Virus record (IMG/VR): IMGVR_UViG_2636415673_000002
DNA length: 16,446 nt
DNA from: a virus
Lineage: Duplodnaviria; Heunggongvirae; Uroviricota; Caudoviricetes
Reading direction: 5' to 3' (one strand)
Shown here: piece after piece, positions 7,581 through 14,222 of the stretch
Layout: every line of letters begins with the position of its first letter
Numbering within the stretch: the first letter of the stretch is position 1
Notes under the pieces: model-generated
The model's input: only the letters and a program-made list of their open reading frames with translations
Databases searched by the model: none
Told to the model about the DNA's origin: nothing
Program-made: the position numbers and the translations under genes

Positions 7581-7777
7581 GGTGGGATCTCCGATAAGGT
7601 TTTATTGACGGAAATGACCGGAATGATGAGCTGAATACCGGAAGGCAGTACCGGATAAATGGCGACATGTGGATTGGCTGCGATAATGCGTTCATAAGCC
7701 AGTGCATCGCCGTAGTAATGCCAGGCCAGGTTATCCCAGCGTTCGCCATCGGTGGTGATATGTTCAAGGTATCGCAT
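7568..7777 (-). CDS. Tail protein X (P2 gpX-like, LysM-like)
   Basis: 69-aa ORF with the gpX-like pattern (W-x-YYG ... AANP ... VLPSG..L.IP). Start overlaps the gpU-like stop, and its 3' end overlaps the D-like start. Confidence 0.7.
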   Translation of the reverse strand: MRYLEHITTDGERWDNLAWHYYGDALAYERIIAANPHVAIYPVLPSGIQLIIPVISVNKTLSEIPPWLR

Positions 7778-8730
7778 TACCAGCTCCTCGTAATGGTCGC
7801 GGCAGCAAGCTGGCTCACTGCGGGAGTGGTTTGTTGTACCGTTGTTCGTGCCTGATCAACCAACGTTGCGGCTTTATCAAACGTCGCTTCGGCGATGTTG
7901 CTGGCAATGTCGTCGAAAAGTGTCTGAGCATGGTCAACCAGCGTACTGGCGTCATTGGCGCAGTCCCGTATACCTGGCATGTTACCCAGTAAAGCTTTAA
8001 TCTGAGCCGACAACGCTTTTGGGAGTCCTGCCAGCATTTGCAGATCCATTGGCTGTTTAAACAGGGTTTCGATGGCGTCGATAGTCTTTTTCAACGACGT
8101 AATTATCTTTTCACACTTTTCTTTTAACGCTTTGGCCTCTTTAATCAGTGCTTTCACTTTTGCCACTGTTTTTTTAATATCTTCAATGGTTTGCGCCAGT
8201 TCATCGAGCATCTCTTTGGCTTTGCGCATACCTTCTTCAATGGCGTTCAATATCTGATACAACCAGGACTCCACCTTATTCGGAAAATCGCTCGCCTTTT
8301 CCTCGATATTAGGCTCCTGGGTGGTAATTGCCGGGGGCAGCAGTGGGTTTTTCGGATCGCCGGTATACTCCTGGAGCGACATTGTTCCGCTTTGGGCAAT
8401 GACATTGCCCCAGGGATCGGTGTGCTGGTGAGTGGCGGTTAACTCTGTAATTACAAACCAGCCGCGATAATCTCCGTTGCCAAACACCAGCGCCATTGCT
8501 TTGTGAGCAAGCATGGCTTCACGCAGTCGATTCAGCTCTGTTGTGGGTTGGCAAAACTGGCTGTGCAGGGAAAATTCCAGCGCCAGCATATCCAGCTTAT
8601 CGCCAATAAACTGCACGCCGGGTTTGCCTTCTATACGGGCATGTGTGGCGTAATCCACGCCCATTGTGCTTTTAAAGCCGTCCCAGAATGTGACAACTTT
8701 AAATTCAATCTCTCCTAAAACGGCATACAT
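7777..8730 (-). CDS. gpU-like tail protein with long C-terminal coiled-coil extension
   Basis: 317 aa. The N-terminal roughly 130 aa resemble P2 gpU-type tail proteins. The C-terminal roughly 180 aa are Lys/Glu/Ala-rich heptad-like sequence (KAKEMLDELAQTIEDIKKTVAKVKALIKEAKALKEKCEKI), predicted coiled coil. ATGA overlap with the tape measure stop. Confidence 0.55.
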   Translation of the reverse strand: MYAVLGEIEFKVVTFWDGFKSTMGVDYATHARIEGKPGVQFIGDKLDMLALEFSLHSQFCQPTTELNRLREAMLAHKAMALVFGNGDYRGWFVITELTATHQHTDPWGNVIAQSGTMSLQEYTGDPKNPLLPPAITTQEPNIEEKASDFPNKVESWLYQILNAIEEGMRKAKEMLDELAQTIEDIKKTVAKVKALIKEAKALKEKCEKIITSLKKTIDAIETLFKQPMDLQMLAGLPKALSAQIKALLGNMPGIRDCANDASTLVDHAQTLFDDIASNIAEATFDKAATLVDQARTTVQQTTPAVSQLAAATITRSW

Positions 8731-11081
8731 CAGGCATACCCCCGGCGCTGCTGCTGCGCCATTACATCGTTAATCATTCTTTCCAGTTCGCGTTTACTCA
8801 TCGTCAACACGTTCTGAATCTCTTTAGTGGTGTTTTGTCCGTTACCCTGCACGGTAATTTGTGGCGAAAAATTCACCTGGACTTTTCCCGGGGAACGGGA
8901 GGGTAGCGTCGCCGGTTTGGTTACGGATTTACCAGGTAAAGAGGCCGACGCGGGTTTTGCCGATGACGGCGTAGCCGTTTTGCCGGATGGCGCGAGTTGT
9001 TTGCCCACCGGCAGCGTTAAAATCGCACCGGCAACGCCTGGAACAACGGTCGCGGGGGAGACTGATGCGGTATTAGCCGTGCCTGTAACAGCCGCAGCCG
9101 ATGCTTCTGTGCTGATACCCATTGTGGCTTTTAGCCAGTCTGGCATGGCGTTTTTGACCTGATCAATAATGCCTTTCAGTGCGGGGAAAGCATTCATTAT
9201 GCCGTCGGCCAGGCTACCCAGTATATTGCTGCCGAACTCGCTAAAACTCGCAGGCATCTCAACACCAAACCAATTCATCACATCGGAAAAGGCGCTATAG
9301 AACAACTCCAGCGGTGACCAGTCGAGAATCAACCGACAAATTCCTGCAATGCCGCCGTCAAAGGCCGTGGTGATACGTTGCCAGATGGTCGAAAAGAACC
9401 TGGAGATAGGTTCCCAGTTGCGATAAATCAGATAAGCCGCGCCCGCAATCGCAGTGATGACCAGACCAATGGGATTCATCAATAACACCCGGCCTAGCGA
9501 GAGAACGGTTCGACCAAACAGTTTCAATGCTCCGATCAGGCCACGACCAAGCAGTTGCGTTAGCCATTTTGCGCCGCCACCCAATGACTTAACCGCCGAT
9601 AGCACTTTACTTGCCGCGCCGCCGAGGGCCAGACTTGCCCTGACTTTCAGGAAGATATCGACCAGACGAATAAACGGCGAGGCGATGAGGTTCGCGCCCA
9701 GCTTTAAAACATTAAGCGCACCGTTAAACAGCCAAATCGCCCCGACGATTTTCGCAATGTTTTGCACCAGCGCCGGATGTTCGCGTAGCCAGGCACTGAA
9801 CTGGCGAATAACCGGCGCAAGGCTTTGTGCCAGCTCGCCAATCGCCGGCATAAGCTGCAAGCCAATGCTGAGCCATAAATCATTTAACGCCAGTTGTAAC
9901 GCTTTAGTCTGTTCAATGGGCGAGGCCATTTGCGCAGAAAAGTCAGCGTTAATCAGATTCTTGCTGGTAGTTTGCATGGCAGAGGCTTTTAACTGGCGAT
10001 ATTCCTCCATATTCGCCAGCATAGGTGCCAGGAATTCCACCGTTTGCGCATCGCCGAACATTTCGCCCAGATTAAATTGCGCCACCATCGATTGCAGCGC
10101 AGTGCTGCGAGCAGATAAATCTTCAATCTGCATAGTGCGTTTGAAGGTGTCGAGGATCGCCGGATTCATCTTCTCAAGCTGCATTTGCACGATATGAGTC
10201 ATGGCTTCGCTAACACTCATACCGTTTTGCTGATGTTCAAGCAGAGAGCCTTGCAAATCGACGCCCTGGCTGGCGAACCAGCTATCGGTTTTTTTCGAAA
10301 AGGTGGTTTGCAGAAAGTGGTCAAAATTCTCAGCCGCCGCACTGGCGCTGGCCCCGTTTTTCATGGCGATCTGCATGGCGGCAGTCAGTTCAGTCATACC
10401 TTCCAGACCCTGAGCGCCGGTTTTACCTGCAAATTTGTCTATCCACTGCGTTTGCTCGGCAACGGCAGGCCCACCGCTTTTGCTAATGCCGTACATCATG
10501 TTTTGCGCGGCGTGGAAATTTTCTGGCGCAATATTCAGTCGATCATGGGTTGCGAGCGCGGCATTCGCCCATGTTTCAGCACTTTCGCGCGTGGCGGTGG
10601 CAGCTTTGGCGATCTCCGGCATATAACGGTTGAGATCCTGTATCGACGACAAATTGCCTTCGATCAGCGTTTGGGCTGCGTTCTGTAAGGTGGTCTGATG
10701 CTGGTTAAAATCCATGCTCCAGTCGCGCAGATTAAGGCTGAGCGTCTCGCGGGTTGTATCATTCATCCCACCTTTGGTCGCCATATTGACCATGTTGTCC
10801 TGGAACTCATACGGCAACTTCCAATCGGGGGCTTCAACATTGAATACTTTGCTAAATTGCCCGGCAAATGTGTGGGTTTTCTCCATCAGATTAGCGCGGC
10901 TGCGGCTATTTTCCTCCAGGCGGAGAGCAGAATCGGCAAGTTGCTGCGTTAGTTTGATTACTGTCGCTTGCTGAGAAGAGAGAGCTAACAAAGTTCTGGC
11001 GTTGAGTGAGCCGTAACGGGCTATTGCCTGCGTCAACGTCTCATTACGCGCCTGAAGCTGGGTAATAATATCGTTGGCCAA
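8730..11081 (-). CDS. Tail tape measure protein
   Basis: 783-aa ORF, Ala/Gln/Leu-rich and alpha-helical, with hydrophobic glycine-rich segments in the C-terminal half. Located between the chaperone and gpU-like genes. The first start-type codon after the upstream in-frame stop is TTG at 11081, so the exact start is uncertain. Confidence 0.8.
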   Translation of the reverse strand: MANDIITQLQARNETLTQAIARYGSLNARTLLALSSQQATVIKLTQQLADSALRLEENSRSRANLMEKTHTFAGQFSKVFNVEAPDWKLPYEFQDNMVNMATKGGMNDTTRETLSLNLRDWSMDFNQHQTTLQNAAQTLIEGNLSSIQDLNRYMPEIAKAATATRESAETWANAALATHDRLNIAPENFHAAQNMMYGISKSGGPAVAEQTQWIDKFAGKTGAQGLEGMTELTAAMQIAMKNGASASAAAENFDHFLQTTFSKKTDSWFASQGVDLQGSLLEHQQNGMSVSEAMTHIVQMQLEKMNPAILDTFKRTMQIEDLSARSTALQSMVAQFNLGEMFGDAQTVEFLAPMLANMEEYRQLKASAMQTTSKNLINADFSAQMASPIEQTKALQLALNDLWLSIGLQLMPAIGELAQSLAPVIRQFSAWLREHPALVQNIAKIVGAIWLFNGALNVLKLGANLIASPFIRLVDIFLKVRASLALGGAASKVLSAVKSLGGGAKWLTQLLGRGLIGALKLFGRTVLSLGRVLLMNPIGLVITAIAGAAYLIYRNWEPISRFFSTIWQRITTAFDGGIAGICRLILDWSPLELFYSAFSDVMNWFGVEMPASFSEFGSNILGSLADGIMNAFPALKGIIDQVKNAMPDWLKATMGISTEASAAAVTGTANTASVSPATVVPGVAGAILTLPVGKQLAPSGKTATPSSAKPASASLPGKSVTKPATLPSRSPGKVQVNFSPQITVQGNGQNTTKEIQNVLTMSKRELERMINDVMAQQQRRGYA

Positions 11082-11169
11082 AATTGTTTCTCTTATAGAT
11101 TGGTGATGGCCCGCTGGTTAGTTTTCTGAAAAATGGGCTGGGAAGAAATAAACCTGGCGGGCTTTAAAG

Positions 11170-11196
11170 GACTCGCAGACATCAGGTCTGCGAGTC
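11170..11196 (-). other. Perfect 11-bp stem-loop in the chaperone/tape-measure intergenic region
   Basis: gactcgcagac-atcag-gtctgcgagtc. On the minus RNA it is followed by CUUUAAAG, which is only weakly U-rich. Candidate attenuator, RNA stability element or frameshift-associated structure. Confidence 0.45.
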
Positions 11197-11269
11197 ATAT
11201 TCGATCTTTATTTGAGCGCTGGCTTCATCCAGCCAGTTGCTAAAGTCATCGACGGTAAGGGCGTCTATC

Positions 11270-11587
11270 TCACTGGGCGGAAAGCGAAACCATCTCGCCA
11301 GTAACGCCATTGCCTGCCATAGCAGGGGAGGATTCTGTAACCACGGTAAGCATGGATTGAAATCGTTTCTGCAATGCCTGGTAATCCAGCAAATCCATTT
11401 CAGCTAAATCTTCTGGCACCAGTCCGGTCATTGCCGCCATTAGCGGTTCATCCCACTCTTCTGGCTTTTCGCTGATCCGGCGCGCGTTGCGCATATCTTT
11501 TACTTTCAGGCGACGTAATTGCAGAGTGTTAATTACGTCTCCCGCCGCTGAAGTAAACGGGAACTGTAAGATATAATGCTCTTTCAT
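11270..11587 (-). CDS. Tail assembly chaperone (P2 gpE-like)
   Basis: 105-aa acidic ORF between the tube and tape measure genes, the canonical position of the E/E-prime (G/GT) chaperone. AAGGA RBS 7 nt upstream of the ATG. Confidence 0.6.
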   Translation of the reverse strand: MKEHYILQFPFTSAAGDVINTLQLRRLKVKDMRNARRISEKPEEWDEPLMAAMTGLVPEDLAEMDLLDYQALQKRFQSMLTVVTESSPAMAGNGVTGEMVSLSAQ

Positions 11588-11613
11588 TTTGTATCCTTAT
11601 TTATTTTGCGAAG

Positions 11614-11633
11614 TTCGGGGCCGTAGCCCCGAA
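11614..11633 (-). other. Stem-loop between tube and chaperone genes
   Basis: ttcggggc-cgta-gccccgaa (8-bp stem) directly after the tube stop codon. No U-tract follows on the minus RNA, so it is not a classical terminator. Possible RNA processing or stability element. Confidence 0.35.
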
Positions 11634-11637
11634 TAAC

Positions 11638-12162
11638 TTAGCCACCGATGTTATTGCGATAGGTACTTAATTGATCCACGCCGTTAACCCGAAAAATATT
11701 CGCCATATAATCAAGTTCAAGCAGCGTTTCACCATCGACCACTTGTTTAATATAAGTGCAACCAAAGGCGCTGCTGAATTCCGGGTTTTCATTTTGTTTA
11801 AATGTTCCCAGTGGATTCTTTTTAAACATGACAGTCAAATGAGTGACTAACGCTAATTGATTCGCTTTCCCCTGGGAGTTATAGCAATCAATACTGGAGC
11901 GGCACTGTAATGCTACCGCCTGCCACGGGTTTGCCGTTTTACGCATGACGTCCTGATAAAAGGAGTTCCATTTAATTTCCCCTTCCAGTTTATCGAACCC
12001 TGCCGGGAGTTCGATTTTGCCGACCATGCCCAGTGCTTTATGCTCCTGCATAATTAAACTGACATCCGGCAATTTAATTTCGGTTGCACGACCTAAAAGG
12101 TTATTACCATCGAGATAAATATTTGCGTTGGTAATACGGTTAATTTGAATTTTTCCAGCCAT
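11638..12162 (-). CDS. Tail tube protein (P2 FII-like)
   Basis: 174 aa. The C-terminus (ELDYMANIFRVNGVDQLSTYRNNIGG) matches the conserved VNGVD...R.NIG end of P2 FII tube proteins. TAATG overlap with the sheath stop. Confidence 0.85.
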   Translation of the reverse strand: MAGKIQINRITNANIYLDGNNLLGRATEIKLPDVSLIMQEHKALGMVGKIELPAGFDKLEGEIKWNSFYQDVMRKTANPWQAVALQCRSSIDCYNSQGKANQLALVTHLTVMFKKNPLGTFKQNENPEFSSAFGCTYIKQVVDGETLLELDYMANIFRVNGVDQLSTYRNNIGG

Positions 12163-13583
12163 TAGCTATTGCTCTCCAGAGAGACTAAATATTCAGAAGT
12201 AATTTCAGTTTCAAACGTCAGACGTTCCAGCGGCGGCGGCGGGGTGAATTTATAGCTAAGCAATAAATGCCCAGCGCTGAGTTCAGTCGGTGAATTTCGC
12301 GCCGGATCGTACCAGCACTCAAAGCCAAGCAGTGCGCCGTCGGCAATCAGCTTACGGCCCCAGGTATTTACTGATTCGGTCAGGGCATCAATCAGCGCCT
12401 GATTAATCGGCATATCAATATACTGCTGACTGAAATAACGGATTGACTCATTAATTACATCGCCTGTCCGGCGGACGTTTTCAAAGTTACGCATATGGGT
12501 CACGGTAGGCCATGCCGCTGTGCGGTTGCCCCACAAGCGCAGACCAGAGCCGTAACTATTGAAAATAGTGGTAATGCCGTTTTCGTTGAGCTGATTCACT
12601 TCGCTTTGAGGATCATCAATCATTGCGGAAAGCGAACGTTCAATACCGGTAATACCCTGAATTTCCTGGTTTGAGTTGCTCCACCAGAAACCTTTTTCGA
12701 GGTCTACTTTGGCACGTAGCCCGGCAGCGCGCGAAGAGAGCGGTTCGAGAACTTCCTGGTTAGTGATGCCATCGTAAACTTTGACGTGTGGGTAACATAA
12801 ACGCGCACGATCAGAGCTGGTATTGAAGTTGATAGCGCCTTGCGAACTGCGTCCTGCCAATACCTGCTGGAATGTCGTCCCAATCGGGGCATCAATGTAG
12901 GTAATCGCACCGAGTTTTTCCGCTTGTGCAATCAGCTCGGTAGTTACTGATTTTTGCGTACAGAACACGGGAGCAAGCAGGATTTTGGCGTAGAAACCAT
13001 ACAGGTTATAGGTGTCCTGAAGGAGTTTCATCCCTGTGCGGTCGCCTGCGGTATTTACGGCACCGATAATATCGGCTGCGGTGACCTTTGTAGGATCAAC
13101 ATAGGTATACGTCGCGTAAACCTTCGCCCCTGCCGGGATTTCAGTTCCGGTACGGGTTATAACGCCATCTGCGGCATTAACATTGTAAGATGTATTTTTG
13201 TACGTAGTGGAACTGGTACCTGGTCTTAATATTACTGAACTTACTCCCGGATGAGCTAATTTAGCTTTATCGGCACTATTGAACGTAATGGTTTCATTGG
13301 CAACATGCAGTCCATGTTTTACCGGATCCAGCACATTAATTACCACCACCGTACCGGCACCGTGGTCATAAATCGCCTTCAGCGCCTGTGGGATCGTAAA
13401 GTTAGCCTGAGTTGAGCCAAACTGCGCAGCATCGCTTTCAGAAAGGCATAATGTTGGTTTATTTACCGGACCACAGGGGGCCGTACCGATTAAAGCGATG
13501 ACGGCGGATTTTACCGCTTTAACGGGACGCTGGCCGGTTTCAATTTCAATGGTTTCTACACCGTGCAGATAATTAGCTGCCAT
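12162..13583 (-). CDS. Contractile tail sheath protein (P2 FI-like)
   Basis: About 473 aa with sheath hallmarks (N-terminal YLHGVET, GLRAKVD.EKG, LWGNRT, C-terminal YKFTPPPPLERLT). The track ORF begins at a TTG at 13589. The ATG at 13583 with an upstream GGAGAGGA RBS is the more likely start. Confidence 0.85.
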   Translation of the reverse strand: MAANYLHGVETIEIETGQRPVKAVKSAVIALIGTAPCGPVNKPTLCLSESDAAQFGSTQANFTIPQALKAIYDHGAGTVVVINVLDPVKHGLHVANETITFNSADKAKLAHPGVSSVILRPGTSSTTYKNTSYNVNAADGVITRTGTEIPAGAKVYATYTYVDPTKVTAADIIGAVNTAGDRTGMKLLQDTYNLYGFYAKILLAPVFCTQKSVTTELIAQAEKLGAITYIDAPIGTTFQQVLAGRSSQGAINFNTSSDRARLCYPHVKVYDGITNQEVLEPLSSRAAGLRAKVDLEKGFWWSNSNQEIQGITGIERSLSAMIDDPQSEVNQLNENGITTIFNSYGSGLRLWGNRTAAWPTVTHMRNFENVRRTGDVINESIRYFSQQYIDMPINQALIDALTESVNTWGRKLIADGALLGFECWYDPARNSPTELSAGHLLLSYKFTPPPPLERLTFETEITSEYLVSLESNS

Positions 13584-13770
13584 GTACAATTTCCTCTCCG
13601 TTATTTTGTTCTTCCTGAGTGATGACAGAAGTCAGGTGATTGCGGGCAATCATGGTCATGACCCACTCGTTGTCTTCTGGCAGATCAATTTCACTGTTCG
13701 GCCACAATAAGATTTCTTGTCCGTCGGCAAGGGTGACGCCGCTTGCCGGGCCGTTGTAGATGTATTTCAT
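13573..13770 (-). CDS. Small hypothetical protein of the tail module
   Basis: 65-aa ORF with a GAGGAAA RBS. ATGA overlap with the upstream gene, and its 3' end overlaps the sheath start. No recognizable motif. Confidence 0.4.
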   Translation of the reverse strand: MKYIYNGPASGVTLADGQEILLWPNSEIDLPEDNEWVMTMIARNHLTSVITQEEQNNGEEIVHGS

Positions 13771-14222
13771 TCAGTTTCCTCGTAATTAACTTCCGTAAGT
13801 AGGGGAAGATCCGTGTTTTCCTGTTCAGCGATAAACAGCGAGCTGGTCGCCATTTCCAGGATGTAGCGGCAGAAACCGCCGCTCTCACCCGTATTAATTT
13901 CTTTTTCAAGCCAAAGAAGACGATCGCAATCAGGAAGCTGAAGGCCACCCAATGCGCTGCGTATGCGGTCCAGTGCGTTTAACGCATCACAATTTTTGCC
14001 AACAATAACGGTGGCGGTTAAGCGGAGCGTTTGCTGTTGCACGAGAGCATCACTGCTTTCAGGCATGGCAAATAGAGAACCGCTATAATTAATAATCACT
14101 GTAACTTGCTGCGTCTGCGGAATATATTTATGGGTATCAACCGATGAAATAGATACATCCATTTCGGGATTCTGTTCACGTAATCTGGTCACAACAGAAT
14201 TCATTACTGATAAAATTTCCAT
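13767..14222 (-). CDS. Putative tail completion / terminator-like protein
   Basis: 151-aa ORF with an AAGGAA RBS, immediately upstream of the sheath gene, where tail completion proteins of P2 gpR/gpS size are commonly encoded. Call is from position and size only. Confidence 0.4.
   Translation of the reverse strand: MEILSVMNSVVTRLREQNPEMDVSISSVDTHKYIPQTQQVTVIINYSGSLFAMPESSDALVQQQTLRLTATVIVGKNCDALNALDRIRSALGGLQLPDCDRLLWLEKEINTGESGGFCRYILEMATSSLFIAEQENTDLPLLTEVNYEETE

Follow-up and report, generated by a model that had tools for sequence, protein, structure and literature searches.

The question raised by this locus is whether a tail assembly chaperone gene and the gap behind it together encode a second, longer protein through programmed ribosomal frameshifting. 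The locus lies in a 16,446-nt stretch of DNA from a virus of the Caudoviricetes (IMG/VR record IMGVR_UViG_2636415673_000002; the whole stretch is referred to here as the window), in which a sequence-only reading had noted a 188-bp gap after the chaperone gene and had proposed a programmed-frameshift extension analogous to E' of phage P2. Tail chaperone frameshifts have been described in the -1 direction for lambda and P2, in the -2 direction for Mu and in the +1 direction for some other phages (PMC5009743, PMC3498833, PMC10885494, PMC3091744). The comparative analysis presented here lends support to the proposed extension through homology to P2 E' and a +1 frame that is free of stops in about 115 loci; the chaperone gene is predicted, with a probability of roughly three in four, to make both E and a 134-aa E-E' fusion by way of a +1 shift at CGA_UUU_C (11365-11359). 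The features discussed are collected in Table 1.

Table 1. Features of the chaperone locus and its neighbours, in window coordinates.
Feature	Position	Strand	Evidence or remark
Sheath gene	13589..12162	minus	Gene order in the window
Tail tube gene, 174 aa	11638..12162	minus	Pfam PF04985 Phage_tube, E=3.7e-56; upstream neighbour of the chaperone
Tail assembly chaperone gene E, frame 0, 105 aa	11270..11587	minus	PF10109, E=3.2e-18
Proposed +1 shift site CGA_UUU_C (R75, F76, first base of codon 77)	11359..11365	minus	Conservation
+1-frame coding stretch of the predicted E-E' fusion, 58 codons + TGA	11182..11358	minus	Translation, codon phase, substitution counts
E' domain core (MALLARWFRFPPSEIDALTVDDFSNWLDEASAQI)	11209..11310	minus	Homolog of Pfam PF06528 Phage_P2_GpE
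Perfect 11-bp hairpin, E' stop TGA in 5-nt loop	11170..11196	minus	Repeat search; arms 11170-11180/11186-11196
Gap, 188 nt	11082-11269		Between chaperone and tape-measure ORFs
Tape measure gene, 783 aa	8730..11081	minus	Pfam PF10145, E=2.7e-11

The relevant genes are all on the minus strand, in the order sheath, tube, chaperone, gap and tape measure. The tape measure, the presumed binding partner of the chaperone, starts with a TTG at 11081, a start that is identical in RefSeq, and is followed downstream by gpU-, X- and D-like proteins and then by baseplate and fibre genes. The gpU homolog (7777-8730, minus strand) encodes 317 aa with the GpU domain at residues 6-123; its C-terminal extension of about 190 aa returned weak coiled-coil-type Pfam matches and no others. 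Across the stop of the Gp37-family gene (13767-14222, minus strand) runs an open +1 frame of 95 codons, 70 before the stop and 25 after, a longer stretch than that at E/E'. The window matches the chromosome of E. coli strain A10 at 100% identity (locus L001, 4610308-4635108), where the cluster adjoins lysC and pgi and comprises a Mor-family activator, a holin, lysis genes (lytic transglycosylase) and tail genes from sheath to fibre. Because head, integrase/integration and transposase genes were absent from the cluster at the E. coli A10 locus, it is a tail-only, tailocin-like element and a candidate tailocin. The cluster was found in 195 of 5,426 complete E. coli genomes and also in Salmonella, where its counterpart is STM4210-4215, a conserved 'BcepMu' remnant (PMC7302871); its phage relatives are BcepMu-type myoviruses.

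The chaperone E scores 66 bits on Pfam PF10109 Phage_TAC_7 over residues 6-80 (gathering cut-off of 25 bits) and is named 'phage tail assembly protein' in RefSeq, which annotates the 105-aa protein only and nothing in the gap. At E, an open +1 frame of 73 codons (44 before the E stop, 29 beyond it) runs to a TGA (11184-11182) located 100 nt before the tape-measure start; the -1 frame closes one to two codons past the E stop. The gap between the two ORFs, the closure of the -1 frame two codons after E and the openness of the +1 frame were therefore as the sequence-only reading had described them, with the length of the open frame, given there as about 67 codons, revised upward. By length alone, the +1 ORF is unremarkable, as other non-gene open stretches across stop codons in the window run to 50-95 codons. 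This ordinary length and the empty RefSeq annotation would fit a chance or relic frame that yields no product, with the gap serving only as an untranslated leader of the tape-measure gene.

Past the proposed site, translation of the +1 frame (ending ...MALLARWFRFPPSEIDALTVDDFSNWLDEASAQIKIEYDSQT) begins with a linker of about 17 codons that contains an invariant Trp, followed by the E' domain. The sole Pfam family matched by the tail of the window was PF06528, at 17.6-18.3 bits (E=0.0016-0.0027) over tail residues 18-51, which is under the gathering cut-off of 23 bits; the same family was matched by the tails of 9 of 16 relatives, with a best E of 6.4e-6. Additionally, the +1 tail aligned by BLASTP with the -1-frame tail of a Pasteurella phage (45% identity, E=7e-11), and a profile built from the +1 tails matched the E' tail profile of P2 and Pasteurellaceae in hhalign (97.95% probability, E=3.2e-13). 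Combined, the PF06528 matches in the relatives, the BLASTP alignment and the profile comparison identify the extension as a genuine P2 E' homolog. No solved structures matched the E' tail profile, no NCBIfam models were found for the tail or the fusion, and the database proteins spanning the whole E-E' fusion were exclusively singletons made by indels or deletions.

The conservation of the +1 frame was assessed across phage loci, 31 loci from one-genome-per-species contigs and 80 viral contigs. The stop-free +1 arrangement was present in 36 phage/genome loci and in 79 of the 80 viral contigs, a set that takes in Enterobacterales, Betaproteobacteria, BcepMu and a Pseudomonas phage. All BcepMu-type clusters from Enterobacterales and Betaproteobacteria have the E' domain +1 to the chaperone and uninterrupted by stops. 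Scattered +1-frame stops were sought in these homologs and were absent from all loci but a few with indels. Rare in-frame E-E' fusions resulting from single-base indels were observed in Apirhabdus apintestini (L036), in IMG/VR contig L096 and in two database proteins (P0001 and P0002). In L036 the indel lies 15 nt upstream of TTT_C, and P0001 and P0002 have theirs at the C-run. Such fusions could be sequencing errors or natural fused-only alleles.

Codon-phase and substitution counts over 72 unique gap-free sequences locate the point at which the reading frame under selection changes. Upstream of codon 76, variability peaks at frame-0 position 3 (e.g., [5,6,23] and [11,3,21] for positions 1 to 3), and from about 30 nt past TTT the peak is at frame-0 position 1, the third position of the +1 frame ([20,13,13], [12,3,6], [24,10,4]); this +1-phase three-base periodicity persists past the E stop ([24,10,4], [20,11,8]). 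The ratio of synonymous to non-synonymous changes upstream of the site was 250/152 in frame 0 vs. 81/408 in the +1 frame; in the overlap it was 22/4 in the +1 frame vs. 5/33 in frame 0, and beyond the E stop 79/86 in the +1 frame vs. 23/178 in frame 0. Coding selection therefore passes from frame 0 to the +1 frame around codon 76, some 90 nt ahead of the E stop. A comparison of the window with a 95%-identical E. coli copy displayed the same pattern at close range: of eight linker substitutions (codons 80-93), seven are synonymous in the +1 frame and all eight are non-synonymous in frame 0. With about 115 related loci stop-free and carrying the same domain, the +1 ORF is beyond chance, and the homology to E' together with the substitution periodicity that extends past the E stop likewise speaks against a relic; the reading as a chance or relic frame is thus extremely improbable, being excluded on grounds of homology and conservation.

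The same data bear on whether E' might be made alone, through internal initiation from a +1-frame start such as the ATG at 11310, rather than as a fusion to E. An ATG-started ORF of 42 aa does exist (11310..11182), its ATG persists in the closest clade, with 33 of 86 unique sequences having it, and P2-type E' ORFs are annotated separately by RefSeq in some genomes. However, the family has no start-codon position in common, the ATG being replaced by CAG in other clades, and 75 of the 86 unique sequences lack a candidate start behind a Shine-Dalgarno-like 4-mer, with none of the 86 having one at +52. The conservation of the +1 frame, as seen in the invariant Trp and the synonymous substitutions, also begins well upstream of the ATG at 11310. 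Since the established chaperone model additionally needs both domains in one polypeptide (PMC5009743), separate synthesis of E' is considered quite improbable, and production of E' as a fusion to E is favored.

The position of the shift is bracketed rather than pinpointed, because the first nine or so codons past TTT_C ([14,11,16]) carry no clear coding signature in either frame. The 5' limit is given by the +1 frame, which opens just two to three codons before codon 76 in Betaproteobacteria and in phage Komp_PAO1, and the 3' limit by the invariant +1-frame Trp, which lies three to six codons after TTT (six codons after F in the window). Within this bracket, TTT_C is the only invariant slippery element. 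Exactly one in-frame TTT_C occurs at the homologous codon in 116 of 117 loci, so that the slippery site as well as the +1 frame, both of which had been suggested for comparison at homologous loci, was found to be conserved. The base after TTT is always C, though the frame-0 residue is Q, H, L or R, and TTT is kept in GC-rich Betaproteobacteria, where by a rough count about 75% of Phe codons are TTC. CGA precedes TTT_C in 79 of 81 unique sequences; by comparison, a control Arg codon elsewhere was CGC in 56 cases, CGT in 16, CGG in 2 and CGA in 1, and synonymous forms of conserved Asp and Tyr codons were split about evenly. The codon before CGA is variable (AAA, ACC, GAG, GTA, GCC, GGC, ACA, GAC or CGT). 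The corresponding sites are TCC_TTT_CGC in BcepMu and GTG_TTT_CGG in Komp_PAO1; CGA is therefore not essential, as it is absent from both.

The indecisive phase signal in the first nine codons after TTT would also permit a real frameshift at another point of the 44-codon overlap or by a different route. One such candidate is tRNA-Pro slippage, -2 or +1, at the C4 run TCC_TCC_CCT (about 11330-11322), with a junction reading ...TESS(P)LLWQ...; the run is present in the overlap of the window, and the rare proteins P0001 and P0002 fuse E and E' in frame exactly there. Against this, conservation of the run fails even within E. coli, where TCC GCC ACT replaces it in the 95%-identical copy, and the seven of eight substitutions that are synonymous in the +1 frame place selection on that frame already upstream of the run; P0001 and P0002 are singletons, consistent with homopolymer indels. 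The C4 run (-2, tRNA-Pro) was consequently rejected as the slip site. A G5 run near the E stop of phage PhiKM (+1 or -2) was also rejected, being downstream of conserved +1 residues and absent elsewhere. The other route is a Ty3-like out-of-frame reading of GAU, with a slow CGA waiting in the A site, giving ...QK-DF-NPCL.... CGA is nearly invariant, and it is said to be a slow codon in E. coli, a finding ascribed to Curran in 1995. However, the variable codon before CGA is unsuited to a special P-site tRNA mechanism, and the residue preceding F in the +1 frame changes with lineage (D, G, P or C), which is unlike translated sequence. A shift at another site or by another route is thus judged unlikely in comparison with a +1 shift at CGA_UUU_C.

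The direction of the shift follows from the same site. Re-pairing from UUU to UUC in the +1 direction is perfect, and -2 re-pairing from UUU or CAA would give GAU or UUC for the wrong tRNAs; a Mu-type -2 mechanism does not fit because -2 re-pairing is impossible at the conserved site. Of the two directions originally offered, +1 or -2, only the former is hence supported. UUU_C is an established +1 P-site slip site that is modulated by which codon occupies the E site (PMC3498833), and UUU in the P site is reported to favor frameshifting on E. coli ribosomes (bioRxiv 10.1101/2025.10.02.679949). None of the usual +1 stimulators was found in the window: a stop codon, an upstream Shine-Dalgarno-like element and a slow A-site codon are all lacking, and CAA, which stands in the A site in frame 0 (relatives have CAG or CUG), is not rare. 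A stimulatory RNA structure near the site was likewise not detected, with RNAalifold energies of about 0 to -4 kcal/mol, no shared helix and inconsistent single-sequence z-scores. A tentative reading, held with rather less than even confidence, is that CGA_UUU_C constitutes a compact, self-sufficient bacterial +1 signal in which the 5' CGA tunes the shift, and which has been kept across Enterobacterales and Burkholderiales for the E/E' pair and overlooked as a fusion in the BcepMu and RefSeq annotations. Under that reading, the tuning would be done by no stop codon, rare A-site codon, Shine-Dalgarno-like element or RNA structure.

The hairpin at the E' stop was also considered as a candidate stimulator. 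As had been described, the TGA at 11182-11184 sits in the loop of a perfect 11-bp hairpin, with arms of 11 nt each that are 100% complementary. The hairpin is not a shift stimulator because it is too far from the site, lying about 175 nt downstream; it marks the end of E'. Folding of the gap RNA gave z=-4.46, and a stem of 10-13 bp with compensatory changes was found in about 22 of 28 distinct variants of the E. coli/Salmonella clade. In the clade of E. coli, Salmonella, Superficieibacter and Phytobacter, a TGA, TAA or TAG is always in the loop, and the PhiKM/KP12 clade carries another hairpin, GC-rich, some 15 nt past the E' stop. The 11-bp hairpin lacks a U-tract and was not called as a terminator; no terminators or promoters were called in the gap, and no known RNA families were found in 10950-11650. 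The hairpin may serve message stability, attenuation before the tape-measure gene or some other role.

In the proposed mechanism, most ribosomes would stay in frame 0 and produce the 105-aa E, and a minority would shift +1 at CGA_UUU_C, where the Phe-tRNA (anticodon GAA) would pair with UUC (11361-11359). This could occur through slippage of the P-site Phe-tRNA on UUU_C or through out-of-frame binding of UUC by the Phe-tRNA with the I:A-wobble codon CGA in the P site; both routes would lead to an identical protein. After the shift, reading would resume at AAT (11358) and end at the TGA (11184-11182). The predicted fusion would consist of E residues 1-76, comprising the chaperone domain, followed by NPCLPWLQNPPLLWQAMALLARWF...DSQT, for a total of 134 aa, its C-terminal part being made up of the ~17-aa linker and the P2-E'-type domain. 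The junction predicted for a UUU_C shift reads ...QKR-FNPCLPWLQNPPLLWQAMALLAR, after K74-R75. Relative to the 105-aa E, the last 29 aa would be swapped for 58 aa; the net gain agrees with the extension of about 30 aa suggested previously, and the shift is placed some 90 nt upstream of the E stop instead of close to it. Judging from lambda G/GT and P2 E/E+E', the tape measure would be bound by the part common to both proteins and tube subunits would be recruited by E', in a ratio of E to E-E' presumably fixed by how often the shift occurs. As in lambda and Mu, the efficiency is probably low; the frequency in Mu is about 2% (PMC3498833, PMC5009743).

The locus has the layout of a frameshift-made chaperone pair, being located between the tube and tape-measure genes and having an overlapping second ORF that carries no conserved start or Shine-Dalgarno-like element and ends before the tape-measure gene; TTT_C with its CGA would supply the conserved slippery sequence inside the overlap. 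The closest likeness in content is to P2 E/E+E'. The chaperone family PF10109 is common to P2 and the window, the E' domains are homologous (PF06528), the P2 gene is likewise placed between tube FII and tape-measure T, and the P2 shift site, like the one proposed here, lies only a few codons from where the chaperone domain ends. The two differ in that P2 shifts -1 at TTTTTTG and the window is predicted to shift +1 at CGA_UUU_C, in the much longer frame-0 overlap of the window, where E runs 29 codons past the shift, and in the end of E', which lies 100 nt before the tape measure in the window and overlaps T in P2. A P2-type -1 shift was not found in the window, which has no T7G, a closed -1 frame and E' in the +1 frame.

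For Mu, gp41 is reportedly extended by a -2 frameshift at CGG_GGG_CGA, a finding attributed to a 2004 paper by Xu, Hendrix and Duda. The Mu extension is in the same relative frame (+1, equivalent to -2), its gene is likewise placed between the tube and tape-measure genes, and both sites contain a CGA codon; Mu gene 41 is named in the Pfam description of PF10109, and the two tail modules are alike in being of Mu or BcepMu type. In contrast, the Mu tRNA-Gly slips back 2 nt on a G-run near the gene end, whereas the window site has no G-run. No homology was detectable by hhalign between the Mu -2 extension and the E' tail of the window (probability 0.75%). Lambda G/GT follows a like logic, with two proteins of common N-terminus encoded between the major tail and tape-measure genes, but shifts -1 at G_GGA_AAG and thus differs in direction and slip motif; neither G nor GT is present in the virion (PMC5009743).

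The Pasteurellaceae relatives connect these systems. In Pasteurella phage AFS-2018a (L011) and two further Pasteurellaceae loci (L041, L042), the E' domain is in the -1 frame directly behind G_GGA_AAG, as in P2 it is in the -1 frame behind TTTTTTG, and the -1 shift sites of P2 and Pasteurellaceae are in about the same place relative to the chaperone domain as the window site. With G_GGA_AAG beside T7G and CGA_UUU_C, one protein family would be using at least three different shift sites.

The window site can also be compared with the proposed UUU_C class of +1 sites and with the +1 site of influenza A PA-X, UCC_UUU_CGU, at which tRNA-Phe re-pairs to UUC and the 5' codon matters (PMC3498833). 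The UUU_C tetranucleotide is common to both, and the sites of BcepMu (TCC_TTT_CGC) and Komp_PAO1 (GTG_TTT_CGG) resemble PA-X; the window differs in the bacterial ribosome, in the A-site codon, CAA in place of a rare CGN (CGC or CGG occurs only in BcepMu and Komp_PAO1), and in the conserved 5' CGA. In the GenBank record of BcepMu (24602-25363, L004/L005), gp42 and gp43 are annotated as a lambda G/T-like pair with a -1 slip. BcepMu gp41 aligns with the window chaperone, and no ORF equivalent to gp43 occurs in the enterobacterial clusters; in the present reading, the BcepMu pair would be gp41 (chaperone) and gp42 (E', +1 frame), joined at TCC_TTT_CGC. A CGA_UUU_C +1 shift was not described in the literature searched, and an earlier mention in Xu et al. 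2004 or Summer et al. 2004 is possible.

Programmed frameshifting of tail chaperones is among the most conserved recoding events in tailed phages and is itself classical, with +1 cases being few and poorly defined. The new elements suggested here are the +1 direction and a different site within the P2 E/E' family, which together would provide a comparative series in one family, the same E' domain being reached via -1 T7G, -1 G_GGA_AAG and +1 CGA_UUU_C. The +1 site is short and unaccompanied by the usual stimulators, so that the contribution of the flanking CGA lends itself to a direct test. The predicted 134-aa protein is missing from the annotation of a tail-only, possibly tailocin, cluster, and engineering or expressing this cluster would need an intact frameshift. 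If the tentative reading of a CGA-tuned signal is true, the real gp41-gp42-type fusion is missed both by the deposited BcepMu annotation (gp42/gp43) and by RefSeq in hundreds of tail clusters of E. coli and Salmonella.
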